A stretch of 40,001 nucleotides of DNA from Clostridia bacterium. GTDB taxonomy: Bacteria > Bacillota > Clostridia > Christensenellales > Aristaeellaceae. Numbering within the stretch: the stretch's first letter is position 1; the number at the start of each line of letters is the position of its first letter. The stretch is from the NCBI GenBank assembly GCA_030526225.1, contig JAUNDF010000002.1:5128-45128 (forward strand). The letters run 5' to 3'. Below the pieces are notes generated by a model. The model did not search any database. It saw only the letters and a program-made list of their open reading frames with translations, and was not told the origin of the DNA. Both the position numbers and the translations under genes were made by a program. Shown piece after piece: positions 2,240-30,909 of this stretch.

Positions 2240-4804
2240 TTACGGGGCCACGGAGTTGCCGGTGGGCAGATCGTAATCCACCGTGCGCAGCTCTTCCTGG
2301 TTGAGGTACCAGTCCAGGAACTCTCTGGCGGCCATGGAGGCTTCACCGCCGGAATATCCGTTGGGGATAAACACCGCGATGGCAACCTCAGGTTTCTCGT
2401 AGGGGGCGAAGGTTACGAACCAGGCATTGTTCTCAAGGTCGATGGAGGTAACCTGAGCGGTACCGGTTTTTGCGCAGATTTCATCCCGGTATTTCCAGCC
2501 CTTGAAGTACTTGGCAGCAGTACCTGATTCGTCAACTACGCCCTTCATCCCCTTCTTGATGTAGGGCAGGTATTCCTCTGCGTTTTCCAGCACGTTGATG
2601 AGCGTAGGCTCGCGCTGGGAGAGGATTTCGCCCTCGGGGGAGATGATGGAGTCGATGATGGAAACGTTGTACACATAGCCGCCGTTGGCCAGGGCGCATA
2701 CATAGCGCGCAACGGCGACGGGGGTGACGGTGGTAACCGACTGGCCGATGGCCGTCAGAATGGTCTGGGCGCCGCCCCACTTGATGTCGTTCATGTAGTT
2801 GTACGTATCACCGATGACGGACTGCAGGTAGACCATTTCCTTGGTCATGTTCAGCTCTTCCATCAGGATGGTACGCATGTTGTCCAGCCAGTAGCTTTCA
2901 TCGTAGTTGACGGCCATGTCCATCAGGCGCTTGGCGCAGGCGGACAGACGGGCATCATCATAGGAAAGGTTTCTGGAGGCACCGCAGTTGCGCAGGTGCT
3001 TTTTGATGGAGTTGAAAACGATGATGGGCAGGGAGGTATCCTGACTGGCCTCGTTCATGGCCTTGGTGGTATCGTACAGGGTGTTCTGGCTGCCCACCAC
3101 GCTGCGGACCTCACCGGGCAGGTCGATGCCGGTTTTGCTGGTCAGGCCGAAGAGGGAGGCGTAGTGGTACAGCCGCTGCTCGCCCAAACGGCTGCCCAGC
3201 TCGTAGAAGAAGTAGTTGCAGGAGTTGGACAGACCCTCCACAATCGTCTGGTTTTGATGCTTCCAGCGGTTGCCCTTGCCAATCCAGCATTTGGGAGCGG
3301 TGGATTCGTCCTTGTTGTACTTGGTGTAGTAGCCCTGGTCGGTGATGCGCTCCTTCACCGTCAGCTCGCCCTCGCACAAGGCGCCCATGCTGGTGACCAT
3401 TTTGAAAATGGAGCCGGGGGTTCCGCGGGCGTGGATGCCGTAGTTGAGCAGCAGGTTGCGTTCATCGGCAAGGATGGTGATGGCTTCCTTGCCGCCGGCC
3501 ACCAGCGCATTCAGGTCGTAGGTGGGGTAGTTGGCCATGGCCAGCACCCGGTCCTCCATATCCAGAATGACCATACAGCCGTGCTCGGCCAGGGACATGG
3601 GGTAGGTGACCCAGTTGCGGTTGGCGATGTCCTCTTTGTTGTCCTCCAGCCAGGAGTCGGAGACCATCAGCTTTTCCTGATTGTCACGGGTGTTGTTGAC
3701 GTTGGCGGCAATGGCGCGCTCGGCCACCTCCTGATAGGAGGCATGGAGGGTCAGCTTGATGTTGTTGCCGTCCTGGGGGGCGGTGTAGCTCAGCTCGCGG
3801 ACCACGCGGCTCATGTTGTCGCGCTCCACCACGCGCTGGCCCTGACGCAGGTAGCTGTTCTGGGTCAGCCAGTCCTCCATGGAGGATTCGATGCCGTCGC
3901 GGCCGATGGTGTCATTGTACGAATAGCCCTTGGCCCGCAGGGTTTCCCACATGGCCTGGGAGGGGATGGCGCCGGTGTAGCCGATAATCTGGCTGGCAAG
4001 GGTTCGCTTGGGGTACACGCGCTTGGTGCCCACCTGAATTTCCATGCCCACCAGCATCATGGAGCGGGTCTCCACCTCGATGACTGTTTCGTACTTCACG
4101 TTCTGGGCGATGACGATGGGCTGGGAGGAGAACACGTTCATCTGCATTTCGCAGTAGATGGCCATGACCTTCAGCATGGTTTCCTCATCCAGAATGTGAA
4201 CGGGGGTGTACTTTTCGCCCTCCAGCTCCTTCAGGGGCTCGATTTCGCTGGCATCGTTGACAATGCGGAAGCGCTGCTTGAGCAGGTTGATGCACTTTTC
4301 CGCCGTGTCGTACTTGGTCATGCTGGTCAGGTAGTTGTTGCTGCGCCACTGGCGCTCACGCTTGGCCAGTACGCTGTCGGATACGCCGGAGCCGAAGTTG
4401 AACTCCCACTCGTTTGTTTCCGGATTGCGCTGAATGACAAAGTCAATGGCCATGGTACCGCCGTTGCGCTCGATGATTTCAATGGTGTCCACAATGGACT
4501 GGGTAAAGGCGGTGTATTCCCTGCGGGAATTCTGGGAGGCATCCTTGTAGAAGGTGACGTTGTAAATCAGCTCGTCCTCAGCCAGCAGCACGGAGTCCGC
4601 ATCGATGATGGAGCCGCGCTTGCCGCGCAGCACCACGGTTTTGGTGCGGGTGCTTTCCGCCTTGTCCGCATATTCCTCGCTGGATTTCAGCTGCAGGTTC
4701 ACAAGGCCGCTGACAAGGTAGGCGAACATCAGCAGCAGAATCACCACAAACAGGACATACCGCCACAGGATTCCCCGGGTGGCAGGGTTTGATGAACGGG
4801 CCAA
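2240..4804 (-). CDS. mrdA: Penicillin-binding protein 2 (elongasome class B transpeptidase)
   Basis: 854-aa ORF with an N-terminal TM helix and the transpeptidase motifs SxxK (GSIFK), SxN (SNS) and KTGT. A TTG start lies 6 nt after AGGAGG. Stop is TAA. It sits between mreD and minD. Confidence 0.9.
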   Translation of the reverse strand: MARSSNPATRGILWRYVLFVVILLLMFAYLVSGLVNLQLKSSEEYADKAESTRTKTVVLRGKRGSIIDADSVLLAEDELIYNVTFYKDASQNSRREYTAFTQSIVDTIEIIERNGGTMAIDFVIQRNPETNEWEFNFGSGVSDSVLAKRERQWRSNNYLTSMTKYDTAEKCINLLKQRFRIVNDASEIEPLKELEGEKYTPVHILDEETMLKVMAIYCEMQMNVFSSQPIVIAQNVKYETVIEVETRSMMLVGMEIQVGTKRVYPKRTLASQIIGYTGAIPSQAMWETLRAKGYSYNDTIGRDGIESSMEDWLTQNSYLRQGQRVVERDNMSRVVRELSYTAPQDGNNIKLTLHASYQEVAERAIAANVNNTRDNQEKLMVSDSWLEDNKEDIANRNWVTYPMSLAEHGCMVILDMEDRVLAMANYPTYDLNALVAGGKEAITILADERNLLLNYGIHARGTPGSIFKMVTSMGALCEGELTVKERITDQGYYTKYNKDESTAPKCWIGKGNRWKHQNQTIVEGLSNSCNYFFYELGSRLGEQRLYHYASLFGLTSKTGIDLPGEVRSVVGSQNTLYDTTKAMNEASQDTSLPIIVFNSIKKHLRNCGASRNLSYDDARLSACAKRLMDMAVNYDESYWLDNMRTILMEELNMTKEMVYLQSVIGDTYNYMNDIKWGGAQTILTAIGQSVTTVTPVAVARYVCALANGGYVYNVSIIDSIISPEGEILSQREPTLINVLENAEEYLPYIKKGMKGVVDESGTAAKYFKGWKYRDEICAKTGTAQVTSIDLENNAWFVTFAPYEKPEVAIAVFIPNGYSGGEASMAAREFLDWYLNQEELRTVDYDLPTGNSVAP

Positions 4805-9402: not shown

Positions 9403-9415
9403 TTGTGGGGTGCGA

Positions 9416-11164
9416 TTACTTGCTGTACTTGGGGCGTTCCACATAGTGGGTGTGGAGCAGCTCGTGGGCCTTGTGGCCGTTGGGCTCGCCCAGATAATCG
9501 GCGTACAGGGCCTTGATGGAGGGGTTCTCGTGGCTCTTGCGCAGGGCCTTGCCCTCGTCCTCGCGGTACAGGGCAGCGGCGCGGATCACCTTGGCGTCGC
9601 ATTCCATGCGCTTGCGGGCGGATACGATGGGCTGACCGCCGCCGGTCACGCAGCCGCCGGGGCAGCCCATGACCTCGATGAAGTGATAGGTCTTCTTGCC
9701 GGCGCGGATTTCGTCCAGCAGCTTGGCTGCATTGGCGGTGCCGTGGGCGATGGCTACATTCAGGGTCAGGTCGCCCACCTGAATGGCGGCTTCCTTCACG
9801 CCCTCAATGCCGCGGACCTGCTCGAATTCAACCTTCTCCAGCTCGCTGCCGGTGAGCACCTCGTATGCGGTGCGCAGGGCTGCCTCCATCACGCCGCCGG
9901 TGGTGCCGAAAATAACGGAAGCACCGGTGGATTCGCCCAGCAGGGGATCGAAATCCTCATCGGGCAGGTTGACGAAGTCGATGCCGGCTTCCTTAATCAT
10001 CTTGGCCAGCTCGCGGGTGGTGATGACCTCGTCCACATCCTGCATGCCGTCGTGACCCAGCTCGGGGCGCTTGGCCTCAAACTTCTTGGCGGTGCAGGGC
10101 ATCACGGAAACCACCGCGATGGTCTTGGGGTCGATGCCCATCTTCTCGGCATAGTAGCTCTTGATCATGGCACCGGACATTTCGTGGGGAGACTTGCAGC
10201 TGGACAGGTTGGGGATGAAGTCCTTGTAGTAGGTTTCGCAGAACTTGATCCAGCCGGGGGAGCAGGAGGTAATCATGGGCAATGTGCCGCCGTTCTTGAT
10301 GCGGCCAATCAGCTCGGTGCCTTCCTCCATGATGGTCAGGTCAGCGCCCCAGTCGGTATCAAATACCTTGTCAAAGCCCAGACGGCGCAGGGCAGCGGCC
10401 AGCTTGCCGGTGACCAGGGTACCCATCTCCATGCCGAATTCTTCGCCCAGTGCGGCGCGGACGGCGGGAGCGGGCTGCACCACCACGTGCTTGGCGGGGT
10501 CTGCCAGCAGGTCCCACACAGCCTTGGTGGAGTCCTTTTCATGCAGGGCACCGGTGGGGCAGGCGGCGATACACTGGCCGCAGTTGATGCAGCTCATGTC
10601 CACCAGCGGCATGCCCCAGGGGGATTCGATGGAGGTGTTGAAGCCGCGGTTGACCGGGCCAATCACACCCACAGCCTGGGTCTTGTTGCAGGCGGCCACA
10701 CAGCGGCGGCACAGCACGCACTTGTTGTTGTCGCGCACGATGGAAACGCTCAGGTCGTCCACATCGTACTTGTTCATGGAGCCGGCAAAGCGCTCGCCGT
10801 CTTCCACGCCCAGGTCGAAGCACAGCTGCTGCAGCTCGCACTTCTGGTTGCGGGCGCAGGAGAGGCACTTCTTGTCGTGGTTGGACAGCAGCAGCTCCAG
10901 GTTGATTTTGCGGGCCTCGCGGATGGCGGGGGTGTTGGTTTTCACCACCATGTTGGGCGCAACAGGCAGCACGCAGGCGGCCTGCAGGGCGCGGGCACCG
11001 GTATCAACCACGCACAGACGGCAGGCGCCGATCTGGTTGATGTCCTTGAGGTAACACAGGGTGGGGATATTGATGCCTGCCTTCTTGGCCGCTTCAAGCA
11101 CGGTTGTGCCGGCAGGAACCTCGACGGAAACGCCGTCGATCGTCAGTTTGATCAGCTGATCCAT
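9416..11164 (-). CDS. hydA: [FeFe] hydrogenase catalytic subunit (HydA/HndD type, multi-FeS N-terminus)
   Basis: N-terminal 2Fe-2S, a His-ligated 4Fe-4S and 2 ferredoxin CxxCxxCxxxCP motifs are present. H-cluster motifs are TSCSPGW (L1 variant), MPCTAKKFE and EVMGCPGGCVTGGGQP. I place the start at MDQLIKL (ATG 11164) after GAGGGAGGAAAAG; the upstream part of the track ORF overlaps the previous gene. Confidence 0.9.
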   Translation of the reverse strand: MDQLIKLTIDGVSVEVPAGTTVLEAAKKAGINIPTLCYLKDINQIGACRLCVVDTGARALQAACVLPVAPNMVVKTNTPAIREARKINLELLLSNHDKKCLSCARNQKCELQQLCFDLGVEDGERFAGSMNKYDVDDLSVSIVRDNNKCVLCRRCVAACNKTQAVGVIGPVNRGFNTSIESPWGMPLVDMSCINCGQCIAACPTGALHEKDSTKAVWDLLADPAKHVVVQPAPAVRAALGEEFGMEMGTLVTGKLAAALRRLGFDKVFDTDWGADLTIMEEGTELIGRIKNGGTLPMITSCSPGWIKFCETYYKDFIPNLSSCKSPHEMSGAMIKSYYAEKMGIDPKTIAVVSVMPCTAKKFEAKRPELGHDGMQDVDEVITTRELAKMIKEAGIDFVNLPDEDFDPLLGESTGASVIFGTTGGVMEAALRTAYEVLTGSELEKVEFEQVRGIEGVKEAAIQVGDLTLNVAIAHGTANAAKLLDEIRAGKKTYHFIEVMGCPGGCVTGGGQPIVSARKRMECDAKVIRAAALYREDEGKALRKSHENPSIKALYADYLGEPNGHKAHELLHTHYVERPKYSK

Positions 11165-11186
11165 GTTCTTTTCCTCCCTCGCACGA

Positions 11187-12983
11187 TCAGTTCTTGGAGA
11201 TGGCGCCGAAACGGCACTTCTCAACGCAGGCGCCGCACTTGAGGCACTTGGCGGTGTCAATCACATGCTGATGGCGCACTTCGCCGGAGATGGCACCGGC
11301 GGGGCAGGCCTTGGCGCACAGGGTGCAGCCGCGGCACTTGTCAGAGATGACATAGTTGAGCAGGGCCTGGCAATGGTGGGCCGGGCAGCGCTTTTCCTTG
11401 ATGTGGGCCTCGTACTCATCCCGGAAATAATGCAGGGTGGAGAGCACGGGGTTGGGGGCCGTCTGGCCCAGACCGCACAGTGCGGTGGACTTGATATTCT
11501 GCGCCAGGGTTTCCAGCTTCTCGATGTCGCCTTCCTCGCCCTTGCCGTCCACAATGCGCTCGAGGATTTCCAGCATGCGGCGGGTGCCGATGCGGCAGGG
11601 GGTGCACTTGCCGCAGCTTTCATCCACGGTGAAGTCAAGGAAGAAGCGGGCGATGTCCACCATGCAGTTGTCCTCGTCCATGACAATCATGCCGCCGGAG
11701 CCCATCATGGAGCCGATTTCAATCAGGGTGTCGTATTCAATCGGGATGTCCAGGTGGTCGGCAGGGATGCAGCCGCCGGAGGGACCGCCGGTCTGCACGG
11801 CCTTGAACTTTTTGCCGTTGGGGATGCCGCCGCCGATATCATAAATGATGGTGCGCAGGGGAGTGCCCATGGGGATTTCCACAAGGCCGGTGTTGTTGAT
11901 TTTGCCGCCCAGGGCGAATACCTTGGTGCCCTTGCTGCGCTCGGTGCCGATGGAGGAATACCACTTGGCACCCTTCAGGATAATCTGCGGAATGTTGGCA
12001 TAGGTTTCCACGTTGTTGAGCACGGTGGGCTTGCCGAACAGACCCTTCACAGCGGGGAAGGGAGGACGGGGACGGGGCTCGCCGCGCTTGCCCTCGATGG
12101 AGTTCATCAGTGCGGTTTCCTCGCCGCAGACGAAGGCACCGGCACCCAGACGGATGTGCAGGTCGAAGCAGAAATCGGTGCCGAAGATGTTGTCGCCCAG
12201 CAGGCCGTATTCCTTGGCCTGCTCAATGGCTACCTGCAGGCGCTTGACGGCGATGGGGTACTCGGCACGGACGTAGATGTAGCCCTCGGAGGCACCGATG
12301 GCATAGCCGCCGATGGCCATGGCCTCGATGATGGCATGGGGGTCGCCCTCCAGCAGGGAGCGGTCCATGAAGGCACCGGGGTCGCCCTCGTCAGCGTTGC
12401 AGGCGATGTACTTCTGGTCAGCGGGGCTGTTGTAGCCGAACTGCCACTTCTTGCCCGTGGGGAAGCCGCCGCCGCCGCGGCCGCGAAGACCGGAGTCAAT
12501 CACTTCCTGAATGACCTGCTCGCGGGTCATTTCGGTCAGGGCCTTTGCCAGGGCCTTGTAGCCGTCAAAGGCGATGTATTCGTCGATGTTTTCGGGGTCA
12601 ATCACGCCGCAGTTCTTCAGGGCGATGCGCTCCTGCTGCTTGTAGAAGCCGATTTCGTTCAGGCTCTTCTGCACGCTGGATTCATGGGTGGCATGGTCCA
12701 CATACACCAGACGCTGCACCTTGCGGCCCTTGAGCAGATGCTCGGAGACGATTTCATCCACGTCCTCGGGCTTTACGCGGGAGTAGAAGGTGCCCTCGGG
12801 GTATACAATGACAACGGGGCCGGCCTCGCAAAGGCCGAAGCAGCCGGTGCGGACGACCTTGACTTCCTTGTCCAGGCCCTTTTCCTTCAGCTGTTCATCA
12901 AAGCGCTCGATCAGCTGCATGGAACCGGAAGAGGTACAGCCGGTACCGCCGCAGACCAGCACATGTGCGCGGTAAAAATCCAT
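11187..12983 (-). CDS. hydB: NuoF-like NADH-binding flavoprotein subunit of the hydrogenase (HydB/HndC)
   Basis: 598 aa with an N-terminal thioredoxin-like 2Fe-2S domain, an FMN site GRGGGGFPTG, ESCGKCTPCR and two C-terminal ferredoxin motifs. Confidence 0.9.
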   Translation of the reverse strand: MDFYRAHVLVCGGTGCTSSGSMQLIERFDEQLKEKGLDKEVKVVRTGCFGLCEAGPVVIVYPEGTFYSRVKPEDVDEIVSEHLLKGRKVQRLVYVDHATHESSVQKSLNEIGFYKQQERIALKNCGVIDPENIDEYIAFDGYKALAKALTEMTREQVIQEVIDSGLRGRGGGGFPTGKKWQFGYNSPADQKYIACNADEGDPGAFMDRSLLEGDPHAIIEAMAIGGYAIGASEGYIYVRAEYPIAVKRLQVAIEQAKEYGLLGDNIFGTDFCFDLHIRLGAGAFVCGEETALMNSIEGKRGEPRPRPPFPAVKGLFGKPTVLNNVETYANIPQIILKGAKWYSSIGTERSKGTKVFALGGKINNTGLVEIPMGTPLRTIIYDIGGGIPNGKKFKAVQTGGPSGGCIPADHLDIPIEYDTLIEIGSMMGSGGMIVMDEDNCMVDIARFFLDFTVDESCGKCTPCRIGTRRMLEILERIVDGKGEEGDIEKLETLAQNIKSTALCGLGQTAPNPVLSTLHYFRDEYEAHIKEKRCPAHHCQALLNYVISDKCRGCTLCAKACPAGAISGEVRHQHVIDTAKCLKCGACVEKCRFGAISKN

Positions 12984-13016
12984 AAAGATTTCCTCCTTAA
13001 GAAAATCGTGTGCGTC

Positions 13017-13385
13017 TTATTCGGCAGCGCCGATGGTGTACTCCTCAACGGGATGACCGTTGACCACGTGCTCGGCCACAATGCGGCCTACCATTTCGGG
13101 CGTAACCTTGACATAGGTGACCTTTTCCTGACCGGGCAGATACACATCCACCATGGGCTCCAGGCGGCACATGCCCACGCAGCCGGTCTGGCTGACGGTC
13201 ACATGCTCAAGGCTGCGCTTGGCAATTTCATCCATGAAGGCCAGCATCACAGGGCGGGCGCCGGCGGCAATGCCGCAGGTGGCCATGCCGACCACCACGC
13301 GGGCAGCATCGGCGTTTTCCTTGCGCATGGCGATATTCTCCAGCGTTTTGGCGCGGATGGCTTCCAGTTCAGCAAGTGATTTCAT
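13017..13385 (-). CDS. Thioredoxin-like [2Fe-2S] ferredoxin (HndB-like)
   Basis: About 122 aa with Cys at ATCGIAAG and GCVGMCR. The ATG at 13385 follows AAAGGAG; the TTG at 13391 in the track is less likely. Confidence 0.8.
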   Translation of the reverse strand: MKSLAELEAIRAKTLENIAMRKENADAARVVVGMATCGIAAGARPVMLAFMDEIAKRSLEHVTVSQTGCVGMCRLEPMVDVYLPGQEKVTYVKVTPEMVGRIVAEHVVNGHPVEEYTIGAAE

Positions 13386-13416
13386 AAGCAATTCTCCTTT
13401 ATACAGGCAATCTGAT

Positions 13417-13959
13417 TCAGGTGAAAACAGGGTCGATTTCTTCCTTCAGCGCATCCCGCAGCCATGCGGCAATCTCCGGCTCGTTCAGGGGCAGACCGCC
13501 CAGCACGGCACGGACTTCGCGGGTGTCGAAGGTGCATTCACCCCGGGGCGATTTCCCCTCAAAGCGGAAATCCGGGGCAAGGGGGTTGGTAATCATCAGG
13601 CTCAGCAGTGTGCCGGATAAATCCCCCAAGGGCAGACAGTCGATGCATTTGGTGTTCATGGTTACGGTAAGCGCTGTGCCCACCCCAACCTTGGACGTGA
13701 TGACCAGGTCGCCCTCGGCCAGCCGGGCGTTTTCCAGCATCATGGGGATGCCGAGGCCGACCTTGCGCGTGGTTCTGGTGGTGGCAAAGGGGCTGGTGAC
13801 CCGGCTGAGCAGCTCGGGGTCCATGCCCTTTCCGTTATCCTCCAGCACCATGGTCAGCCAGCCGCTTTCGTCGATGGAAAGGCGGATGACAATCAGTGAC
13901 GCGCCGGCGGATATGCTGTTTTGGGTCAGGTCCAGCAAATGCAGGGACAAATCACGCAT
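13417..13959 (-). CDS. GHKL/histidine-kinase-like ATPase domain protein
   Basis: 180 aa with EDNGKGM and GLGIP (N and G boxes). It is embedded between the hydrogenase subunit genes. Confidence 0.8.
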   Translation of the reverse strand: MRDLSLHLLDLTQNSISAGASLIVIRLSIDESGWLTMVLEDNGKGMDPELLSRVTSPFATTRTTRKVGLGIPMMLENARLAEGDLVITSKVGVGTALTVTMNTKCIDCLPLGDLSGTLLSLMITNPLAPDFRFEGKSPRGECTFDTREVRAVLGGLPLNEPEIAAWLRDALKEEIDPVFT

Positions 13960-13971
13960 GGCAAATCAACC

Positions 13972-14439
13972 TCAGCGATACTTGGCCACAATGGCGGGAA
14001 TCTCGTCGGGGGTCAGGCGGCCGTAAACCTCGTCGTTAATCATCATGACGGGGGCCAGACCGCAGGCACCCAGACAGCGGGTGGCGTTGAGGGTGAAGCG
14101 GCCGTCGGCGGTTGTCTTGCCCACGGGGACCTTCAGCTCCTCGCTCAGCTTGTCCAGCACCTTCTGGGAGCCCTTGACGTAGCAGGCGGTACCGAGGCAT
14201 ACGCCCACGATATACTGGCCCTTGGGCTCCAGAGAGAACTGTGCGTAGAACGTGGCAACGCCGTAAACCTCGGCCAGGGTGGTGCCCAGACCGTCGGCGA
14301 TGATCTGCTGCACATCCATGGGTACATAGCCGAAGATTTCCTGTGCAGCCTGCAGGACGGGCATCAGTGCGCCGGGAACATCCTTATGCTTGGCAATGGC
14401 TTCCTGCAGAAGCGCGTATTTTTCCTTCTGATCAGGCAT
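13972..14439 (-). CDS. hydC: NuoE-like [2Fe-2S] subunit of the hydrogenase (HydC/HndA)
   Basis: 155 aa with CLGTACYVKG and CLGACGLAPVMMIND. Confidence 0.9.
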   Translation of the reverse strand: MPDQKEKYALLQEAIAKHKDVPGALMPVLQAAQEIFGYVPMDVQQIIADGLGTTLAEVYGVATFYAQFSLEPKGQYIVGVCLGTACYVKGSQKVLDKLSEELKVPVGKTTADGRFTLNATRCLGACGLAPVMMINDEVYGRLTPDEIPAIVAKYR

Positions 14440-14632
14440 GATGTAATTACCTCCTTGAATCGGGCGGCTTGACGGATGGATGCCGTCACAGCCTAAATCG
14501 TTTTAATTTTAACATAAATTTGGCAAAAAGGGAAATGGAAAAACACAAAAAATCCGCAATATCAGCAAAAAAATACAAAAAACATAGAAAATCACGAAAA
14601 AATCATACCGGATTACCCAAAAAGAGGAAGAA
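14440..14632 (-). promoter_or_regulatory. AT-rich leader/promoter region for the hydC-hydA structural genes
   Basis: This is the only AT-rich gap in the locus. The minus strand has an extended -10, TGtTAAAAT (forward 14506-14514), with only a weak -35. Phased T-tracts lie upstream (forward A-tracts 14567-14602), and a small hairpin gacgg-atggatg-ccgtc sits at 14471-14487. Confidence 0.3.
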
Positions 14633-15346
14633 TCAGCGGATGATTTCCTTCCCGGAGGCGGCCAGCAGGGTATCGAACAGACCGCCGGCGGAAAACCTGT
14701 CCGTGGGGAAATCGAACACCGCCTATTGAATCTTGCCCAATTGGTGGGCATCGGAGGAATGCAGCACCGCTCTGCCTGCAAGGATTTTCTCATTGATGGG
14801 CAGCTGAGGGGAAACCTCCACCAGCCCGTAGTGCGGCTCATCAGGCATCAGGCCCAGATTGACCAGCAGGCCGTTGCTGCCCCGGTTGATGTGGGCCGGC
14901 ACCGCAATGCCCCCTCTGCGGCGAACCTCTGCGGTGCATTCCTCAAGGGATAAATCCGTGGCGCCGATGAGCATCCTGTCCTCGGTGAAGCGAATGACAT
15001 CATCCGTGTCGCGAACATACTGGGTGCCGAAGAAGTCGGGCATGTTGGGCATATCCGGCAGATGGGAGGAGAAGAATTCCCCGGCATCCACCGCAGCCTC
15101 CACGGTGCGGAAGTACCCCAGCAGGTGCACCTCCTCCCGGGTGGTAATCTCCAGCCCCGGCAGCAGAATCAGCCCGAAATAATCAGCCGCTTCCTTGACA
15201 TAGGGCAGATTGAGGGCGGAGTTGTGGTCGGTGACGGCGATGGCCTGCAGCCCTTTGATGTGAGCCATGCCGCAGATGTTGGCGGGGGTCATGTCCTCAT
15301 CTGCGCAGGGGGACAGGCAGGAGTGAATGTGCAGGTCAACCAGCAA
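14633..15346 (-). CDS. PHP (polymerase/histidinol phosphatase) domain protein; the apparent TAG stop at 14723-14725 is read through to TGA at 14633
   Basis: DLHIHS, VTDHNS and HSSDAH motifs are present. After ...HQLGKIQ-TAG the frame stays open for 29 codons (AVFDFPTDRFSAGGLFDTLLAASGKEIIR) and ends at TGA. Confidence 0.7.
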
Positions 15347-15352
15347 GGCGTG

Positions 15353-15706
15353 TCAGTCCTCTCTGTTGTGCCCGGGCAGCCCTGCGGCGGAGAGCAGCGC
15401 GCACAGCTCGTAGGCGGTCAGGTCGCTTTCCAGCACGGTGATGTCTTCATCGATGGCCTTTTTCAGCGTGGCCTCCTCAATGTGGACCCCCTCGGGCAGG
15501 ATGACGGCAGCCATTTCCATCAGCGCGGCCACGGCAATCACGTTCATGTGGGTCTGGACGGTAATCCACGCCATGCCGGACTGGCCGTGGGCCATGACCC
15601 AGCTGAGCAGGTCGCAGGCATAGCCGCAGGTCACCGGTCGGGATTTGTCGGTATCGGGGGTTACATCCACCGCGCGGGTCAGGGCAGTCAATTCGGCAAT
15701 GGTCAT
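15353..15706 (-). CDS. DRTGG domain protein
   Basis: 117 aa, paralogous in size and position to 17510-17863. A typical companion of HydS-like genes. Confidence 0.7.
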   Translation of the reverse strand: MTIAELTALTRAVDVTPDTDKSRPVTCGYACDLLSWVMAHGQSGMAWITVQTHMNVIAVAALMEMAAVILPEGVHIEEATLKKAIDEDITVLESDLTAYELCALLSAAGLPGHNRED

Positions 15707-15728: not shown

Positions 15729-17027
15729 TTACTGTCTCGTATTCTGTGCCAGGGCCACCATTTGCTGGGCCATGGCGCGCAGGTGATCCTTCAGGATGTG
15801 GATGCAGTCCATCTCGCTGGCGTAGCCCCGGACGATATCCTCGGCGAAGGTGCGGCAGGTGGGGGAGCCGCAGGAGCCGCAGTCGTAGCCGGGCAGGCGG
15901 TTGATGGTTTCGTCAATCTGCTCCATTTTCCGCATGGCCTCGATGATGTCGTCGTCCAGCCGCATGGCACCGTTGGGCAGCACCACATCGGGTGCGTGCA
16001 GCTGGATGCCCTCCAGCAGGTTCAGCTCCACCGGCTTTTCCGGCAGCAGGGCCGGGTCGCCTTCAATCAGCCGGCGGACGATATTGCGGGCCACATAGTT
16101 GTTTTCAAAATTCAGCGGACCGCCCACGCAGCCGCCGGTGCAGGCGTTGCCCTCGAAGAAATCAAGGTCGCTGAGCTTGCCGTCCTCAATCTCCTAAAGC
16201 ACACGGATGACGTTCTCAATCCCGTCCACGGACATGCTGCTGCTGTGGCCCACCGCATTGGCCTCGCCGCCGCTGTTGGCCCAGCCCACGCCCAGGGCGC
16301 TGGCGGTGACCAGCGTGTCATCCTCTTCGGCTTGCTTGGTGTGGCTTGAGAGCAGACCGTAGATTTCCAGCACGCTGATGGCCCCGTCCACCGCGGAGGT
16401 GGGATGGCCGATGGGGGAGCGGATGGCGGTCACCTTGGCCGGGCAGGGAGTGATGAAAAAGCAGCCGATGTCCTCCTCCGGCACGCGGTTTTTCCTTGCG
16501 AACGCCCGCTTGGCCATCATGGCGGCAACCTCCATGGGCTGGCGCACATCCACGAGGTTGTCAATCAAATCGGGGAAGCGCACCTGAATCAGCCGCACAA
16601 TGGCCGGGCAGGCGGAGGAAATCAGCGGCTTGGGGCAATCAGGCTCCCGCAGCTTTTCCTGAATGACGCGGGTGACCACATCGGCACCCCGGGCCACCTC
16701 AAACACATCGTCAAAGCCCATTTTCTTCAGCCCCGCCAGCACCGGAGAGATGCTGTGCAGCGTTTTAAACTGCCCATACAGGCTGGGGGCCGGCAGGGCG
16801 ATTTTGTATTTGAAGGCGCTGATGGTGCTCAGCGGGTCCGTTACCGCCACCTTGGCGTGATGGTCGCACACGCGGATGCATTCGCCGCAGTCGATGCACA
16901 GCTCGTCGATGATATGCGCTCTGCCGCCGCGCACGCGGATGGCCTCCGTGGGGCAGCGCTTGAGGCAATTGGTGCAGCCCCTGCATTTATCCGCCAGAAG
17001 CGTGACAGAGTGGAAGCGTTTTTCCAT
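15729..17027 (-). CDS. HydS-like (putative sensory) [FeFe]-hydrogenase-domain protein, with one in-frame TAG at 16194-16196
   Basis: It has two N-terminal ferredoxin motifs. The H-cluster-type motifs are SSACPAIV (Ala at the relay-Cys position), TPCPAKV and ACTGGCVGG. A C-terminal CGSCGSPTC Fe-S domain follows. ORFs 16194-17027 and 15729-16127 share a frame (900 nt apart). The junction reads ...NVIRVL-TAG-EIEDGKLSDLDFFEGNACTGGCVGG. Confidence 0.8.
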
Positions 17028-17064: not shown

Positions 17065-17487
17065 TCAATGCAGGGCAAAGCCCATCTCGATGGTGGTGCC
17101 CACCCCCACCTGACTTTCAATAGAGAAGGTGGAGGCGTTGCGCTTCATGTTGGGCAGGCCCATGCCGGCGCCAAAGCCCAGGGCCCGTGCCTGATCGCTG
17201 GCGGTGGAGTAGCCCTCGGTCATGGCCTTGTCAATATCCGGGATGCCCGGGCCCACATCCTTGCTGATGAGGGTAATCATGTCCGGGTCCACCCGAAGGG
17301 TCAGGGTGCCGCCCATGGAGTGGATGACCAGATTCAGCTCCACCTCGTAGCAGGATACGGAGATGTGCCGCAGCACCTCGGCGTTGATGCCCAGCTGCTT
17401 CAGCTTGCGCTTGATGGCCGTGGAGGCCTGACCGGCAGCGGCGAAATCCCCCGCTTCCACATTGAATACCTGTTCCAGAATGGCCAT
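17065..17487 (-). CDS. Anti-sigma-factor-like serine kinase / GHKL ATPase
   Basis: 140 aa with DVGPGIPD and GFGAGMGLPN. Confidence 0.75.
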   Translation of the reverse strand: MAILEQVFNVEAGDFAAAGQASTAIKRKLKQLGINAEVLRHISVSCYEVELNLVIHSMGGTLTLRVDPDMITLISKDVGPGIPDIDKAMTEGYSTASDQARALGFGAGMGLPNMKRNASTFSIESQVGVGTTIEMGFALH

Positions 17488-17509: not shown

Positions 17510-17863
17510 TCAGTCTGCCTGACGGGAGCCGGGCAGATGGCGCAGGTACAGCTCCCCGCAGGAGGTGTAGGTGGTCATGGGCGTGGAAATCACCGCCAGC
17601 CCTGCCTCCCGGGCAAGGGTCAGCATTTCCTCGCTGGGCTGCTTGCCCCGGCTGAATACAATGCAGACCGCATCCAGCATTTCGGCGGTAATCATCACCT
17701 GGGGATTAATCAGCCCCGTAATCAGCACCGCCTTTTCATGGGCAAAGGCCAGCGCATCGCTCATCAGGTCCGCCCCGCAGGCGCAAAGGACCTCCTCGCC
17801 CAGCATGTCCTCGCCGGCCAGCAGCTTGCCGTGCAAAATCTCTCTGATTTCTCCGATGGTCAT
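17510..17863 (-). CDS. DRTGG domain protein
   Basis: 117 aa with AVLITGLINPQV...IVFSRGKQP...GLAVISTPMTTY. First gene of the regulatory module. Confidence 0.75.
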   Translation of the reverse strand: MTIGEIREILHGKLLAGEDMLGEEVLCACGADLMSDALAFAHEKAVLITGLINPQVMITAEMLDAVCIVFSRGKQPSEEMLTLAREAGLAVISTPMTTYTSCGELYLRHLPGSRQAD

Positions 17864-21999: not shown

Positions 22000-23039
22000 C
22001 AGTTCAGCACCGCCGCTTTCATCCCGCCCCAGCGGGTCGTTTGGGATACCAGCTGCCGCAGCCCCTGCAGCATGGCGGGGGTGGGCTGCTGGGTGAGCAT
22101 GGAGGCCAGCACCTCCTGCATATCACGCATACCAACGCCCTGCTTGGCCAGAATGCGCAAATCCTGCACGGCCTCATCCTCGTTGGTTTCCGGGCGCACG
22201 GCATCCTGAATCAGACCAATCATCTGCAGCGTGGTTTCTGCCTCTTCAGGCAGGATGCCCGCCACGGCGCTGAGCAGCGTCATTTCGTCCATTCTGGGGG
22301 GCAGGCTGCTGCCCATGGCGGCAATGAAGGGCTCCGGCTCCGCAAGGCCCGGGTGCAAAAGAAACCGGCGGCCGTCCATGCGGCAGATAAAGTCACAGCT
22401 GATGTGCAGATACCGCTGGCACAGGCGGATGTCATCGGGGTCATCGGTCTCCATGGCATCCTGCACCAGATGCTCCAGCGCCTCCTCAAAGGGGACCACG
22501 CCGCGTATGTACAGCAGACCCCGCAGCGTCATGTCAAAGCGCATCAGGCGCTCGCGCAGCTCCTTGTGCACGTCATCGAAAATCATCTCGGCCACGGAGG
22601 GCACCAGCTACGGGGACATGCGCAGGAACAGCCGCTCGTCATCAACCCATTCAAGGTAGCACCACAGCCGCCGCACCAGCGACTCGGCAGGGAGGGCATC
22701 CTCCATGTCTGTCAATTCGGCCCGGCCGCCGCCCACAATCAGCTTTTCCAGCAGCAGATGCTCGGGGAGGGTGACCAGCGCCGTTTCCACCGGAAGGTTT
22801 TCGATGACCATATCCCGCAGCATGCTGACGGTATGCAGCCGCCTTTCCCGGGGGAACTCCTGGGCAGCATGGCTGATGGACCACAGCTGCTCGGCGCGGC
22901 TGTCATCCTGTAAAGCGAATAAATCAAAATCCGGCAACCCGGAAAGCCGGCTTTCGCAGGCCTCCAGCTGTCGGAGATGCAGGACAGACATGGTCTTGTC
23001 CGCCCAGTGATCATACCGAACATTGTTTTCCCGAAGCAT
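21999..23039 (-). CDS. Hypothetical protein (346 codons), with one in-frame TAG at 22608-22610
   Basis: ORFs 22608-23039 and 21999-22604 share a frame (435 nt apart). The junction reads ...ERLFLRMSP-TAG-LVPSVAEMIFDD. A strong RBS, AAAGGAGAACAA, precedes the ATG at 23039. There is no RBS or start for the second half. Stop is TGA. Confidence 0.65.
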
Positions 23040-24221: not shown

Positions 24222-24470
24222 GGGATAAAGCCCCTCTCTTGTATCATTTGCGCCCGGTGGGGCGGATAAAAAGCATGGTCGATATGGCCATACACCCATT
24301 ATACAAAGGGGGAATGGGCTGTCAAGGCGATTGGATACAGAAACACATCAGAAAGACAATCCGAAACCGCCGGAGGCAAAACAAGGATTTTGTGCCGCGG
24401 GGGTGGAAATATATCATATTAGGGTATTGTTTATTAATTGTAAGAAATAGATTTGAAGGGGGTCTGCGGC

Positions 24471-26348
24471 ATGGTGCGATATCTGTTCCTGTTCGGGGAT
24501 GCTGCGCTGCGCCTTACCCGTGTTTCCCTGTGGGCGGATGAGAGCGGCGCCGTATGCGCCATCCCCGGGGATGATGATGAAATCCGTGTGGTGCACGTGG
24601 GGCTGAATCCCCCGGATGAAGCACTGCAGAAGCGGCTGGCGCTGTACGGTGCCTTCGGCAGCATGGCGGACGGAAGCCCCTGCCGGGTGTCCTTTGTCAG
24701 CCTTTGCCCCCGGCTGCCCGGGGGGAAGCAGTCCCTTCAGGGGGCAGCCGTACCGCAGGAGGCACTGCTGTACCGCGCCCTGTTCGGGGAAGAAGAGGAA
24801 GACCTGCAGGCATTGATGGCCCGCCACAGCGAGGCCGCCGAGGCAGTGCTGCGCCGCTGGCTGACCGGCGGAAGCGACCCTGCGCTGAAGGATGCACTGG
24901 ACGACATCCGTGATGCGGCGGAAAGCTGCGGCGCGCAGGTACTGCTGTGCGCTCAGGGGGATGACGGCTTTGCCTGTGCCGGCATGATGACCATGCTGGA
25001 TACGCTGGCGCAGATGAAGCAGCAGTCCCGGGGCTACCTGAAGCTGGGGGCCATGGCTCTTCTGCCCGATGGAGAGAAGAATGGTGCCGGTCAGCTGGTC
25101 AATGCGCTGGCAGACCGGGCGGAAACCGGCGTGCCGGATGTGGTGTCCCTGATGGGCTGCCCCGGCTGGCAGGGCGGCGCGCAGGCTGATTTTATGGACC
25201 TGCCCGCCGCCGCACTGATGCTGGATTTCTTTGCGCAGATGGATATCCCGCGGGAACCGCAGGTGCATATGCTGCATCTGGCGGATTCCCTGTACACCGC
25301 CGATTTGCTCCCGGGGGCTGCCATGGCAGGCTATCAGGCGCTGGTGAAGGCATCGCTGCTGTATCGCTATGAAATGCTGCCCGTGATTCGGGAGCGGCTG
25401 GCATCTCCGTCCCTACTGAAGGACAGGCAGCGGGGCTGGTATGCCGCCGGCTTCGGTGCAGTGCGCAAGCTGGATGAAAACCACCGGCAGGAGACCATCC
25501 GCAGGGCGGAGCAGCTGGCTGAACTGCTGAAGCTGTACACCGAGGACATGGCGCAGATTGCCGATACGGTCCCTGCCGCCCTCAGTGCCGGAGACAAGCG
25601 CGCCTCTGCCATGCAGGAGGCGGTGAAGAACTACCGTGCGCTGCTGGAAGCCGCGGGTGAGCTGGCGGATATCGAGCGCACCATGAAGGCATACAATCTG
25701 CAGGATGACGGTGCAGTGGTCCGCGGCAAGGGTCCGGATGATTTTGCCGCGCGTCTATTGCGGGACGCAGCAGAAAAGCGCAAAGAGCTGCAGCAGCTGC
25801 GCCAAGTGCAGGCATCGCTGGACAAGACCATCGGCGGCATGGGCAAGCTGATGCTGATGGACCGCATGCTGGCAGGCATCCGCCGGGCATTGGCCGTGGA
25901 GGAAAAGGAAGCGGCCCGCCGGGAGATGATGATTGCGCAGATTGAGCGGGACAACCCCGGCACCCTTGAGGAAATGGAGCAGCGCCGGGTGCCTCTCAAT
26001 AGGCTGGCCATGCACATTCAAAAGCTGCGCAGCCAGCAGGAATATCTGGAAAAGGAACGGCAGGAGGCGGAAGAAACACGCCTGTGGGCCGAAGCACCGG
26101 AGGTGGAACCGGCCTGCACCGTGCTGCCCGGCGCTGCCGCGCTGGATGATTTCCGTAAGCGGGCGGTGCAAATCCGCAAGGACAGCGAGCTGTATCAGCT
26201 GCTGGATGACCTGCTGCCCGAATGCACACCCTGCCGCACGGCAGAAAAGCTGTTGGGCGGCATCAGCCCGGCACAGACCGGCGATGAGGCACTGCATCAA
26301 CTGATGGCACAGCTGTGCCGCATGTTCAGGGGAGAGGAGGCGCGATGA
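24471..26348 (+). CDS. Large uncharacterised protein A (625 aa; globular N-terminal half, charged coiled-coil-like C-terminal half)
   Basis: The ATG at 24471 follows GAAGGGGG, and an in-frame TAA lies at 24441. No family was recognised. The stop overlaps the start of the next gene (ATGA). Confidence 0.7.
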   Translation: MVRYLFLFGDAALRLTRVSLWADESGAVCAIPGDDDEIRVVHVGLNPPDEALQKRLALYGAFGSMADGSPCRVSFVSLCPRLPGGKQSLQGAAVPQEALLYRALFGEEEEDLQALMARHSEAAEAVLRRWLTGGSDPALKDALDDIRDAAESCGAQVLLCAQGDDGFACAGMMTMLDTLAQMKQQSRGYLKLGAMALLPDGEKNGAGQLVNALADRAETGVPDVVSLMGCPGWQGGAQADFMDLPAAALMLDFFAQMDIPREPQVHMLHLADSLYTADLLPGAAMAGYQALVKASLLYRYEMLPVIRERLASPSLLKDRQRGWYAAGFGAVRKLDENHRQETIRRAEQLAELLKLYTEDMAQIADTVPAALSAGDKRASAMQEAVKNYRALLEAAGELADIERTMKAYNLQDDGAVVRGKGPDDFAARLLRDAAEKRKELQQLRQVQASLDKTIGGMGKLMLMDRMLAGIRRALAVEEKEAARREMMIAQIERDNPGTLEEMEQRRVPLNRLAMHIQKLRSQQEYLEKERQEAEETRLWAEAPEVEPACTVLPGAAALDDFRKRAVQIRKDSELYQLLDDLLPECTPCRTAEKLLGGISPAQTGDEALHQLMAQLCRMFRGEEAR

Positions 26349-29300
26349 TGGAGGAAAAGATGACAGCCCGAACCGGGGAGCAGACAGCCGACCGTCTGCT
26401 GCCCTCCTTCAGCATGCTTCCGGTGTGCGATATCCCCGCAGACCAGCCCACGGGTGTGGTGGGCATCGGCCACGGCAGCAGCCGCTGGCTCCGCCGTCTG
26501 GCCGACCGCCTGGGCGGCACCGGCATGACCTATGCGGCCAAAGAAAAGCTGGCCGGGGCCATCCGGGACAAGGGCGAGGCATACACCTGCTGGCGGGGAA
26601 TGCTGGCCATGCTGCTCCTGTGGGATTTGCACCGTGATGCGCCCCAAGCCTTGGAGGCCGTTTGCTGGGACAAGGGCACGCCTTTGGCCGCCATGCTGCT
26701 GGAAGCCTCCGGTCTGCAGGACAGCGCCGCCTTTGGGGAGAAGCTGTGCGTGATGACCCTTCGTCAGGGCGGCAGACAGCTGCCTGTGGCCATTCCCGAC
26801 CGGGAGGCACTGCTGGTGCCCGCCGTGGATGCATCCCTTGACAGCGACGTGATTCCCCCGTGGGTCACATGGTTTGACCGGGATGAGGGCAAAATGCAGG
26901 ACCCCGTGGGGCTGATGAACGAAACGGAGCGGGAGGTGCTGGTCAAGCGGCTGCAGCTGTTCCTGCAGGCGTATGGCGCGGAGGAAAGCGCCCTGTCACA
27001 GGCGGTGCGCCAATTGGCAGAGGACACGGCAAAAATCAACCGCGATGCCAGAGAAGCCCTGTCAGACAGCAAGGGCAGTGCCGTGCAGGAGCTGGCATTG
27101 CGCATTGAGGCCATCCTTGGGCTGAAGGGTCACGAGGCTTTCCCGGGGCTGACCGGCGACAGCGCGGTGATGCAGACCGGCGGCACCAATCCGGTGCTGA
27201 GTGCATTGCACATCCCCCACAGCGCGGACCGCAAGCTGGTGTGCTGCACCACCTACCGCTGGAACGGCGTTCCCTTTGCCCGGGATGCCGAGCGCTTTGT
27301 CTACGAGCCTACGGGCCATGCTGACGAAGCCGCCGCGCTGGATGAACTGAGCCTGGAGCTGGACCTTGCGGCGGAATATATCCCCCACTGGAACGAGCAT
27401 CTGTCCGGGGGGCTCAGCGAGCTGTGGGAAAAGTGCAAGCGCAAAAACCGCCTGTATCCCGCGGTGACCAAAACGGTGTTCCAGCTGTTTGGCCGTGCGG
27501 ACAAGCAGAAGGAAACAAAGCCCGTGGTGCTGAACATTCCCGAGGAACGGGGTCTTGCCGCCGCCGGGTATCTGATGAAAACACTGCTTGGCGATGATGC
27601 GGCCCAGCTGCCCCAGAAGCTGTTCAGCGACCGGCTGACGCTGGTGCCCTTTGCCGCCCTTGCGGATGGTGCGCTGGCACAGGCCGCCTTTGTCCGCTAT
27701 GATGAGGACGGCAGCCCCCTGTGCGCTCTGCCGCCCCTGTCTGCGGCGCTCACCGCCTTTTTGACCGAGCGGGCTCACATCACCCTGCAGCCGGAGGGGC
27801 TGCGCTTCCTGCCTGCCGATGAGGAGGGCAGCCTGTAGGTGCGCCTGATGCTCCGCGGCGCGGGGGAGGTGTCCTTCAGCCGCGTATATCGGGCAGAGGA
27901 TATCATCACCCTGAACCATGACAGCATGCCCACGGTCAGCGTGTGGCCCGGCGTGGCTTTCCCTGAGGGGGACTGGCAGTATTATCTGCTTTAGGCCTTC
28001 CGCGGCGAAGAAGGCATCACCTTCAGCGTGTGGGAAAAGGATGGCTGGGTGCACTGCGCTCAGGGTGCGGAGGAGCGCATTTTCCGTGGGGCAAGGTGCA
28101 GCCGTTATCCCCGATTGATGGCCGTCAGCATGGACGGACTCTCCTTGGGTGCACTGCCCGATACGCCCCCTGTGTGCGATGTGCCCTCCGGCGGCGAAGC
28201 GGCGGCGGGCATCGACTTCGGCTCCTCTGCCGCGGCCACGGCCATCCTGATGGGCGACAGCATGATGAGCATCACCGGGGCAGATTGCCGCCGGGTGCTG
28301 ATGCAGGGCGAATTTGCGCCGGTGCCTGTGCTGGCCCAGCCGGTGATGCCCTCGGCACTGCAGCTGTGCGCCCGTCAGCTGCCCCATCGCCCCCAGCCTA
28401 TGCTGGACAGCCGCATCCCCTCCGAGGCGGATACGCTGGCAGAGGGCGCGGAAAACATCATCGACAACATCCCGTGGCGGGTGGAAAATGACCGGCAGGA
28501 AATGATTCGCCTGTACATGCTCCAGCTGATGCTCACCACGGCGCTGGCCTGCCGCCTTCAGGGTGCCGACCGCATCACGTGGCGCTTTGCCCTGCCCGAC
28601 AGCATGGCTTAGGCCGGCAAGGCATCGCTGATGAACCAGCTGTCCTACCTGACGGATGAACTGGCGGACATGACAGGGCTGCCTGCCCAAAAGGAGCCGC
28701 CGGTGATGGTCCCCGGCTGCCGTGCTCAGATGCTGTACTTCCGCGAGCGCAGGGATGTGAATGTGCGCGGCGGGTGCATCCTGCTGGATGTGGGCAGCAA
28801 CGGTGCCTCCGTGGCCCTGTGGCTTCGGGGCAGGCAGGCCCCTGTGCTGCAGATGGCGCTGCCTCTGGGCGTGGACCTGATGCTGGAAACCATGGCGGAT
28901 GAAAGCCAGATCAGCGCACTGCTGCACCTGCACGGCGCCTTCCTGATGCTCCTTTCCGGCGTGATGGCCCAGAGCGTGTACATGACCTCCTCCGTCAGCC
29001 ATCTGCTGCCGGAAACCATGCCGGTGTGCATGGCGGGACGGGGCGGCTCCTTGCTGCAGCGCATTGACGAAATGGACCGCATCCGCCTGCTGGACTTTAT
29101 GCGCCCGGCCATGGAGGAGACCCATCCCACCGTATCCGCCGGCTATGTGTTCAGCGAATACCCGAAGATGGAAACAGCCGCCGGCCTTGTGCTGTATGCT
29201 CCGGAGCAGGAGGAGGACACCGCCTCTGCCGGCATTGCCATGCGGACCCCGTGGCCGCCGGAGCAGCTGCTGATTGGCTTTATGCGCCTGTTCGGCGTGC

Positions 29301-29500
29301 GCTTCCCCTGGGAGGCTGCCGCCATGTTCCCGCAGATGTTTGCCCGGGACGGCTACCTGTCCGTGGACGGCGAAAACCTGCTGATGGCGCTGGCGGAGGA
29401 ATGCATGACCGGCCAGCCCCTGACGGACGGGCTTTTGCGGGTGATTGCACAGCTGCGCACCATGGCCTTCCCCATGGGCGGCAGCATGGATGAAATGTGA
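26345..29500 (+). CDS. Very large uncharacterised protein B (about 1051 codons) with a C-terminal actin/Hsp70-fold (ASKHA) ATPase domain; three in-frame TAGs (27836, 27992, 28610)
   Basis: Track ORFs 26315-27838, 28028-28612 and 28631-29500, plus the 51-codon gap segment, are all in one frame (start positions all 2 mod 3). I verified codon by codon that TAG is the only interruption. ASKHA-like motifs are AAGIDFGSS (from 28208), ILLDVGSNGASVAL (about 28787) and CMAGRGGSLL (about 29030). These parallel the MreB motifs in this window. Confidence 0.7.
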
Positions 29501-29577
29501 TGCTTTGCGCATACCGGCCCCATGGGCTGGACGATTGTATCAATAACTGAATCAGGATTCCGGAGGTGAAAGCAACC

Positions 29578-29910: not shown

Positions 29911-30909
29911 ATGAAAAGATTGTTTGCGGCGGTGCTGGCCATGGTGCTGGCGCTGTCCCTGACCTGTGCCCATGGCGATATCCTCCCCGATACCGCCCCG
30001 CTGGGCCTTTCCTTTGATGTCAACGCCGCGGAATGGGAGCCGGATTTGATGTTCCTCGACTCTGCGGCGGCAGACAAGAGCTATGTGCTGCTGTATGCCA
30101 TGTACATCAACAGCGCCGTGATGGACCCGCTGGCGGATGCCTATTAGCAGGCCTATGAAGCCGGTGACGAGGCCGGGGCAGAAGCGGCCCTGACGGCGTA
30201 CCGGCAGGCACAGACGGCCAATTCCGCTGTGTGCGGCATGCTGGTGGGCTTTGAAAAATCACAGGCGGATGCGCTGAAGGCAGAAATCTTCGGGGATGCC
30301 CAGCTGACAAAGGTGGGCGAAAGCAGCACCCATGTGTACTACAAAATCGTGGCCGAGGAGCCTGACGAAGCCCTTTCCCCGGAGAATCAGGCAGAGATGG
30401 TCAAGGCCATCGCCCTGACAAAGCAGGTCTTCGATGCGGCACAGGTGGTTGAAATCACCGAGGAAAGCTATACCGGCACATCCATCGGCGCCTTCTCCAC
30501 CCGGGATCTGCAGGGCAGTGAGGTGACGGATGACATCTTCGCACAGGCGGATTTGACCGTGCTCAACGTGTGGGCCACCACCTGCCCGCCCTGCATCCGC
30601 GAGATGCCCGAGCTGGAGGCATGGTCCCATGATCTGCCCGAAAATGTACAGGTCATCGGCCTTGTGATTGACGTAAGCGACACCTCCGGCAAGGTGTATG
30701 ACACCGCCATGACCATCATCGGCAAAACCGGCGTCACCTACCGCAACCTGATGATGGACCGCTCCCTGACGGGCTTTGTCAGCGGCATCATCGGCACCCC
30801 CACCACCTTCTTTGTGGATAAGGACGGCCGTCAGGTGTGCGAGCCTGTGGTGGGTGCGTATATGGACATGTACAGGCAGAACGTGACTGACTGGCTTTCC
30901 GGCCGGTAA
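29911..30909 (+). CDS. TlpA/ResA-like thioredoxin-fold lipoprotein, with one in-frame TAG at 30145-30147
   Basis: Signal peptide MKRLFAAVLAMVLALSLTC and active site WATTCPPC. ORFs 29911-30147 and 30229-30909 share a frame (318 nt apart). The junction reads ...DPLADAY-TAG-QAYEAGDEAG. Confidence 0.75.

Follow-up and report, generated by a model that had tools for sequence, protein, structure and literature searches.

Among bacterial stop codons, UGA has been reassigned to Trp (translation table 4) and to Gly (table 25), with loss of RF2. To our knowledge, no bacterial reassignment of a stop codon other than UGA has been described. In recoded gut phages (genetic code 15), which include crAss-like phages, Lak phages and others, TAG is inferred to encode Gln and is served by a phage suppressor tRNA. 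Reading of UAG as Glu is described for the nuclear codes of peritrich ciliates and Blastocrithidia, eukaryotes in which both UAA and UAG are reassigned and eRF1 is changed (PMC12153298). An archaeal code reads all TAG codons as pyrrolysine, the 22nd amino acid, with dedicated Pyl machinery (bioRxiv 10.1101/2024.09.30.615893). No bacterial code with UAG as Glu was found in the genetic-code literature and screens searched, and a 2026 preprint screening ~2.7 million assemblies lists no bacterial TAG reassignment.

The gene studied here belongs to a family represented by TamHydS of Thermoanaerobacter mathranii, a group D (M2e) putative sensory [FeFe]-hydrogenase (PMC8163306, PMC10407848, PMC13104023). 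Group D is defined by a C-terminal Cx2Cx4Cx16C motif without a PAS domain. Replacement of the proton-relay Cys (C299 of CpI) is described as a feature of groups C and D, and the change of M353 to Ser or Thr is conserved among M2e enzymes (PMC8163306). The window analysed here, 40,001 nucleotides from an uncultured Clostridia bacterium, contains a gene of this type with a TAG in its reading frame.

The putative hydrogen-sensor gene and its operon

The gene and its parts are located as follows.

15729..17027, minus strand: hydrogen-sensor gene, 432 aa, TAA stop, one in-frame TAG
16854..16997, minus strand: N-terminal two-[4Fe-4S] ferredoxin-like domain (residues 11-58, Pfam Fer4_7/Fer4_10)
16602..16619, minus strand: L1-like motif SSACPA (residues 137-142), ligand Cys kept, Ala at the position of CpI C299
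16434..16451, minus strand: L2-like motif TPCPAK (residues 193-198), Thr at the position of CpI M353
16194..16196, minus strand: in-frame TAG, codon 278 (plus-strand letters CTA)
16128..16145, minus strand: L3 motif ACTGGC (residues 295-300), two H-cluster Cys ligands, downstream of the TAG
15804..15881, minus strand: C-terminal Cx2Cx4Cx16C [4Fe-4S] motif (residues 383-408), found by regular expression and by PF04060

The minus-strand frame 17027..15729 comprises 433 codons, 432 residues and the TAA, with the TAG at codon 278 as its sole interruption. An earlier note on this DNA had placed the TAG between the H-cluster motifs L2 and L3, which is where it lies, and the junction given there, ...GIENVIRVL-TAG-EIEDGKLSDLDFFEGNACTGGCVGGPLN, is matched exactly. 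The Fe_hyd_lg_C domain (PF02906; residues 76-304, E=1e-35) runs across the TAG in one stretch, and PF04060 (FeS) covers residues 378-409. The ligands of the H-cluster [4Fe-4S] unit, C140 in L1, C195 in L2, and C296 and C300 in L3, are invariant in 34 aligned homologues. C296 and C300 exist in the protein only if the TAG is read through, and termination would remove both together with the C-terminal CGSCGSPTC... motif, as the note had stated. Under the standard code (table 11) the frame divides into ORFs of 277 and 132 aa. The latter (15729..16127) does start after L3, as had been claimed, but not at an internal Met: its start is a GTG at codon 301, Val in the full protein, just past the second L3 Cys.

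Judged by sequence, the product is a putative sensory [FeFe]-hydrogenase of group D (M2e, TamHydS type). Its layout is that of TamHydS: a pair of [4Fe-4S] motifs at the N-terminus is followed by an H-domain and then by the C-terminal Cx2Cx4Cx16C motif. As there, a PAS domain is lacking: the Pfam scan gave no PAS match, and the protein ends 24 residues past the C-terminal Cys motif. As in TamHydS, the position of CpI C299 is not Cys (Ala here) and that of M353 is a hydroxyl residue (Thr here). The absence of a PAS domain rules out a group C HydS (M2f, TmHydS type). Of the earlier designation "HydS-like sensor" the sensory type is therefore retained, and the PAS-bearing group C identity is replaced by a PAS-less one resembling TamHydS. 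The proton-path residues proposed for group D are present as S252, E255, D268 and E292, which correspond to S249, E252, D265 and E289 of TamHydS when its numbering is tied to the mutagenesis primers printed in PMC10407848. The acidic residues around the C-terminal cluster are also kept (D382, E396, D397 and D407). Codon 278 corresponds to TamHydS position 275, outside the named proton-path residues; unlike TamHydS, the gene has its conserved Glu at this position written as TAG. An AlphaFold2 model computed from 34 close homologues had a mean pLDDT of 58 and was therefore used for helix placement alone. In this low-confidence model codon 278 falls inside a predicted helix (residues 270-281), shortly before L3.

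The neighbouring genes with Pfam assignments are the following.

17510..17863, minus strand: DRTGG-domain gene, putative signalling partner, upstream of the sensor gene
17065..17487, minus strand: HATPase_c gene, putative signalling partner, directly upstream of the sensor gene
14633..15346, minus strand: PHP-domain gene, second gene downstream, with a TAG at codon 208 (14723..14725)
13972..14439, minus strand: NuoE-like gene
13417..13959, minus strand: downstream HATPase_c gene
11187..12983, minus strand: HydB/NuoF-like gene
9416..11260, minus strand: HydA gene

The order on the minus strand is DRTGG, HATPase_c, hydrogen sensor, 117-aa ORF, PHP, NuoE-like, HATPase_c, 124-aa ORF, HydB, HydA. 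The same order is found in a 38-kb contig of a 79%-identical relative, L013, and the downstream bifurcating-type hydrogenase genes (9416..14439, minus strand) are 85-90% identical to their L013 counterparts. As with TamHydS, the sensor gene precedes a bifurcating HydABC and adjoins a histidine-kinase-like ATPase; unlike with TamHydS, no AraC-type regulator was seen beside it, its neighbours include DRTGG and PHP genes, and its product is known from sequence. All operon genes in the window terminate with TGA or TAA. The 117-aa ORF (15353-15706, minus strand) and the 124-aa ORF (13017-13391, minus strand) match no Pfam family at E<=1e-5 and are conserved in L013 (74-79% identity), where the counterpart of the 124-aa ORF gives only a faint 2Fe-2S_thioredx match.

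The TAG column in relatives

Alignment for continuity and for the residue at the TAG column, the check proposed in the earlier note, gave unsplit proteins and Glu throughout. The column is Glu in 120 of 120 best database homologues (71-80% identical, 431-440 aa, all single polypeptides) and in the loci of 15 of 15 relatives (11 GTDB relatives and 4 metagenome contigs), again all single polypeptides. Invariant columns number 153 over the 432 residues, and this is one of them. The Glu codon used there by the relatives is GAA, in the closest ones, or GAG. With PF02906 spanning the TAG and 135 of 135 relatives encoding one polypeptide, the TAG interrupts a single continuous sensory-hydrogenase gene, as the note had implied without naming the amino acid. 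Orthologues divided at the TAG, the finding that the note had named as its refutation, were looked for; since no homologue is split (0/135), that refutation does not apply.

These data bear directly on the idea that two separate polypeptides, divided at the TAG, are the natural product. The two ORFs obtained under the standard code agree with such an arrangement. However, translation could restart in frame no earlier than the GTG of codon 301, and the 23 conserved codons from 278 to 300 would stay untranslated. Because there is no in-frame start before codon 301 and 135 relatives are unsplit, we exclude a natural split and leave it hardly any probability.

The two parts of the gene were also compared in their rates of change. 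Against L013, dN/dS is 0.19 before the TAG and about 0.26 after it. Before and after the TAG alike, the branch leading to our gene is the longer one, and by a comparable ratio; the downstream part is therefore not decaying but under purifying selection. The value of 0.26 weighs against a fresh pseudogene, in which a GAG-to-TAG nonsense mutation in an organism using the standard code would have truncated the sensor to 277 residues. TAG is a single transversion from GAG, and table 11 does yield the 277-aa and 132-aa ORFs; the closest relatives, however, have GAA at the column.

The single-base difference from GAG, in a metagenome-assembled genome of 136 contigs, would also suit an error of sequencing or assembly. 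The Logan contig L127 (from SRR24915835, 1300 nt), the product of a different assembler, is 100% identical to our sequence over its length, with the same TAG, although it possibly derives from the same reads. The species was met in one sequencing run only. Both accounts, a mutation and an error, are taken up again below with the genome-wide data.

TAG codons and release factors across the genome

The genome examined amounts to 2.19 Mb in 136 contigs, is 79.8% complete and has 60% G+C. Six-frame ORFs with TAG masked were searched against ~1.7 Mb of relatives' DNA, mostly from the closest GTDB relative (G006). The best-scoring frame per region was retained, and N runs and tRNA clusters were excluded. 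This procedure replaced gene models chosen by codon score because the latter were contaminated by antisense ORFs: they picked shadow ORFs such as 9410..11242 (plus strand) over the real minus-strand HydA gene. They also grossly over-counted CAG, and the TAG-specific excess of post-stop coding that they gave is indicative only. N runs occur inside genes of this genome (G000) in contigs C41 (~1983-2783), C112 (~2563-4668) and C46 (~14447-15079), where they may be scaffold gaps and imitate strings of masked codons in six-frame translations.

In 50 homology-verified genes we found 54 isolated in-frame TAGs, which align to Glu in 22 cases, Asp in 6, Ala in 5, Lys in 3 and Gln in none. Against a Glu background of 6.4%, the binomial probability of this many TAGs at Glu is ~1e-13. 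Where at least 9 of the 12 flanking residues are identical, the counts are 9 for Glu and 2 for Asp. The assignment to Glu is a statistical one: the 32 of 54 sites that align to residues other than Glu lie mostly in poorly conserved contexts. The genome's own GAA and GAG codons served as a standard, aligning to Glu in 56% and to Asp in 8.5% of cases in the relatives, compared with 41% Glu, 11% Asp and 0% Gln for TAG. Codons for Gln, Lys, Tyr, Leu, Ser and Trp in the same genome align to Glu in at most 10% of cases. In these alignments the profile of the TAG columns matches that of the genome's ordinary Glu codons. As a control for readthrough, the other stop codons were treated in the same way: conserved-context sites numbered 2 for TGA and 2 for TAA, as against 12 for TAG.

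The converse was seen at gene ends. In 421 verified genes, the first stop past the aligned end is TAA in 256, TGA in 163 and TAG in 2. Both TAG cases are artefacts, one lying in a tRNA cluster and the other 309 codons beyond the alignment. The orthologues in relatives end with TAG in 24 of 435 cases (Fisher P 1e-5 to 1e-7).

Within the window, at least five genes with Pfam domains contain one in-frame TAG each. For the TAG of the PHP gene, 6 of 7 relatives have Glu. The TAGs located outside the operon are listed here.

1017-1019: TAG in the FtsW/RodA gene, Glu in G006
1979-1981: TAG in the MinD/ParA-like gene, aligning to Tyr in a poorly conserved stretch
22608-22610: TAG in a 346-aa ORF, aligning to Ala in a poorly conserved stretch
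30145-30147: TAG in a redoxin-domain ORF (codon 79), possibly preceding the true start
35504-35506: TAG in the histidine kinase gene

The possibility that the TAGs of the operon serve a regulatory gating was considered and rejected: 2 TAGs in ~2,900 operon codons are not above the genome rate of ~0.36 per 1,000 aligned codons. Elsewhere in the window, positions 24414-29512 hold overlapping long ORFs on both strands (631 aa plus, 628 aa minus, 816 aa minus and 1061 aa plus), none with a Pfam match; the 1061-aa ORF requires TAG readthrough.

The release-factor genes were examined in their chromosomal context. In contig C109 the order is DUF1385, PrmC, 30 nt and Sua5, with no prfA (RF1 gene) between the last two. 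In 8 of 8 relatives examined PrfA directly follows PrmC, with Sua5 seen downstream in 5, where the range reaches it. More widely, prfA is present in 30 of 30 nearest relatives and in 189 of the 200 family genomes sampled. A tblastn search of our genome with the RF1 of a relative gave no match. A release-factor family search did not find RF2 either in this 80%-complete assembly; the mere absence of RF1 is therefore uninformative, and only the synteny of prfA carries weight. From this synteny, the RF1 gene has been deleted from its conserved place.

Several observations were made beside this comparison. The 11 family genomes lacking prfA were considered as sister recoded lineages and rejected, as they look like assembly gaps (Sua5 missing or contig end); their HydS-like orthologues contain no TAG. 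The PrmC gene of our genome (C109:23238-23987; locus L117:1429-2271) has one in-frame TAG and shares 4 nt with the DUF1385 gene that precedes it. G019, a genome of the same order (93% complete), gave with the prfA model a match at RF2 level only (306 bits, with a TAA inside) and none at RF1 level. It differs in this from the other 29 relatives and could represent a gap or another RF1-less lineage.

A nonsense mutation and a sequence error can now be weighed against these results. Both leave unexplained the TAG-only excess, the Glu columns, the vanished TAG terminators and the loss of prfA. A pseudogene in a standard-code organism would not account for 50 verified genes with TAG, the lack of any verified TAG terminator and the deleted prfA, and we regard it as very unlikely. 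An error process would not yield TAG alone at Glu columns together with the loss of all TAG terminators, and its probability is smaller still, close to negligible. The TAG site of the sensor gene is thus ordinary for this genome; it is the code of the genome that is remarkable.

Probable decoding of TAG and its consequences

We consider it very likely that the organism treats the TAG at codon 278 as normal sense, most probably as Glu, and makes the full 432-residue group D putative sensor. This uncultured Clostridia lineage is probably a bacterium naturally free of RF1, with UAG serving as a rare Glu codon in its chromosome. According to this model the ribosome would read through the TAG to give a 432-residue protein with all four H-cluster Cys ligands and the C-terminal [4Fe-4S] motif. 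The TAG would be decoded by a Glu-charged tRNA with anticodon CUA, and RF2 alone would terminate translation, at TAA and TGA.

The predicted tRNA was searched for in several ways. Among 44 ARAGORN and 42 Rfam tRNA matches in the 79.8%-complete assembly none has the anticodon CUA. The assembly has tRNA-Glu(UUC) and tRNA-Glu(CUC) but lacks tRNA-Tyr; the tRNA set is therefore incomplete and the absence of a tRNA(CUA) proves nothing. A pattern scan for tRNA(CUA) in five genomes of the family returned tRNA-Arg(UCU) only. A pattern combining a Glu-like CUA loop and a T-arm, run over all GTDB species genomes, gave 18 matches and none in Clostridia. The 18 genomes (L134-L151) include many of Hyphomicrobium and a Methanomassiliicoccales archaeon; these may be suppressor or Pyl tRNAs of unrelated lineages. 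In our genome the segment C12:472-538 is a weak Rfam tRNA match (30.7 bits) left uncalled by ARAGORN. Its T-arm is good, but neither an acceptor nor a D arm is clear, and its loop resembles anticodon CGC, not CUA.

That no tRNA(CUA) was found, and that at 32 of 54 TAG sites the relative has a residue other than Glu, could be taken to mean that TAG is sense without being specifically Glu. In an RF1-free cell, either near-cognate tRNAs (Gln, Tyr, Lys or Trp) or a suppressor that carries some other amino acid would then insert a mixture or a different residue. However, the TAG profile fits the genome's own Glu codons and not those for Gln, Lys, Tyr, Leu or Trp. In addition, the most conserved contexts are Glu or Asp (9 and 2), and the column of codon 278 is Glu in all 135 relatives. 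A reading other than Glu is therefore unlikely, though it is the most serious of the rival accounts.

Pyrrolysine has a precedent, TAG being the Pyl codon in some bacteria of the class Clostridia and in archaea. In our genome the best match to PylS (TIGR02367) scores 26.7 bits against a cut-off of 178, and no tRNA-Pyl was called by ARAGORN at default settings. Three "Pyl" calls made at relaxed settings, among 1885 relaxed matches, are not credible. The TAG columns, moreover, are Glu or Asp and not Lys. We attach almost no probability to pyrrolysine at these codons.

Comparison with the known recodings places the proposed Glu code apart from each of them. It resembles the bacterial UGA recodings in that a stop has become sense genome-wide, its use as a terminator has gone and the cognate class-I release factor is lost; it differs in that the codon is UAG, the factor RF1 and the amino acid Glu, in a genome with 60% G+C that is not reduced (given as >2.2 Mb). 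With the code-15 phages it shares TAG as a sense codon and the same kind of habitat. Unlike theirs, its TAGs belong to the chromosome, to housekeeping and operon genes whose synteny with standard-code relatives is kept, and none of the 54 columns is Gln; a phage-type TAG=Gln fits neither of these observations. As in the ciliate and Blastocrithidia codes UAG would be Glu, but UAG is the only codon concerned here and TAA is the commonest terminator. As with the archaeal Pyl code, a prokaryote would never use TAG as a stop; in contrast to that code, no PylS was found and the columns are those of Glu.

If UAG is Glu in this lineage, standard pipelines fragment the sensor and roughly one gene in ten of the genome, and databases hold truncated products such as the recorded 277-aa fragment of the sensor gene. 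The RF1-free, amber-free E. coli strains made by engineering would then have a natural bacterial counterpart in this lineage. Its code would be a bacterial genetic code absent from the NCBI tables, and the first in which a bacterial stop codon is reassigned to any standard amino acid besides Trp and Gly. With 60% G+C and a non-reduced genome, it would not fit the usual account of codon capture by AT pressure and genome reduction. Codon 278 provides a clean test case, with one TAG at an invariant Glu in a well-studied enzyme family and a gene that is non-functional if truncated.

By analogy with the published work on TamHydS, and from the operon context, the sensor probably binds H2 at a slow H-cluster. 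It probably also signals, by way of the HATPase_c, DRTGG and PHP proteins encoded beside it, to control the downstream HydABC hydrogenase. If the lineage is indeed RF1-free and reads UAG as Glu, the invariant Glu278 of its H2 sensor is among the sites for which accurate decoding of this codon matters.
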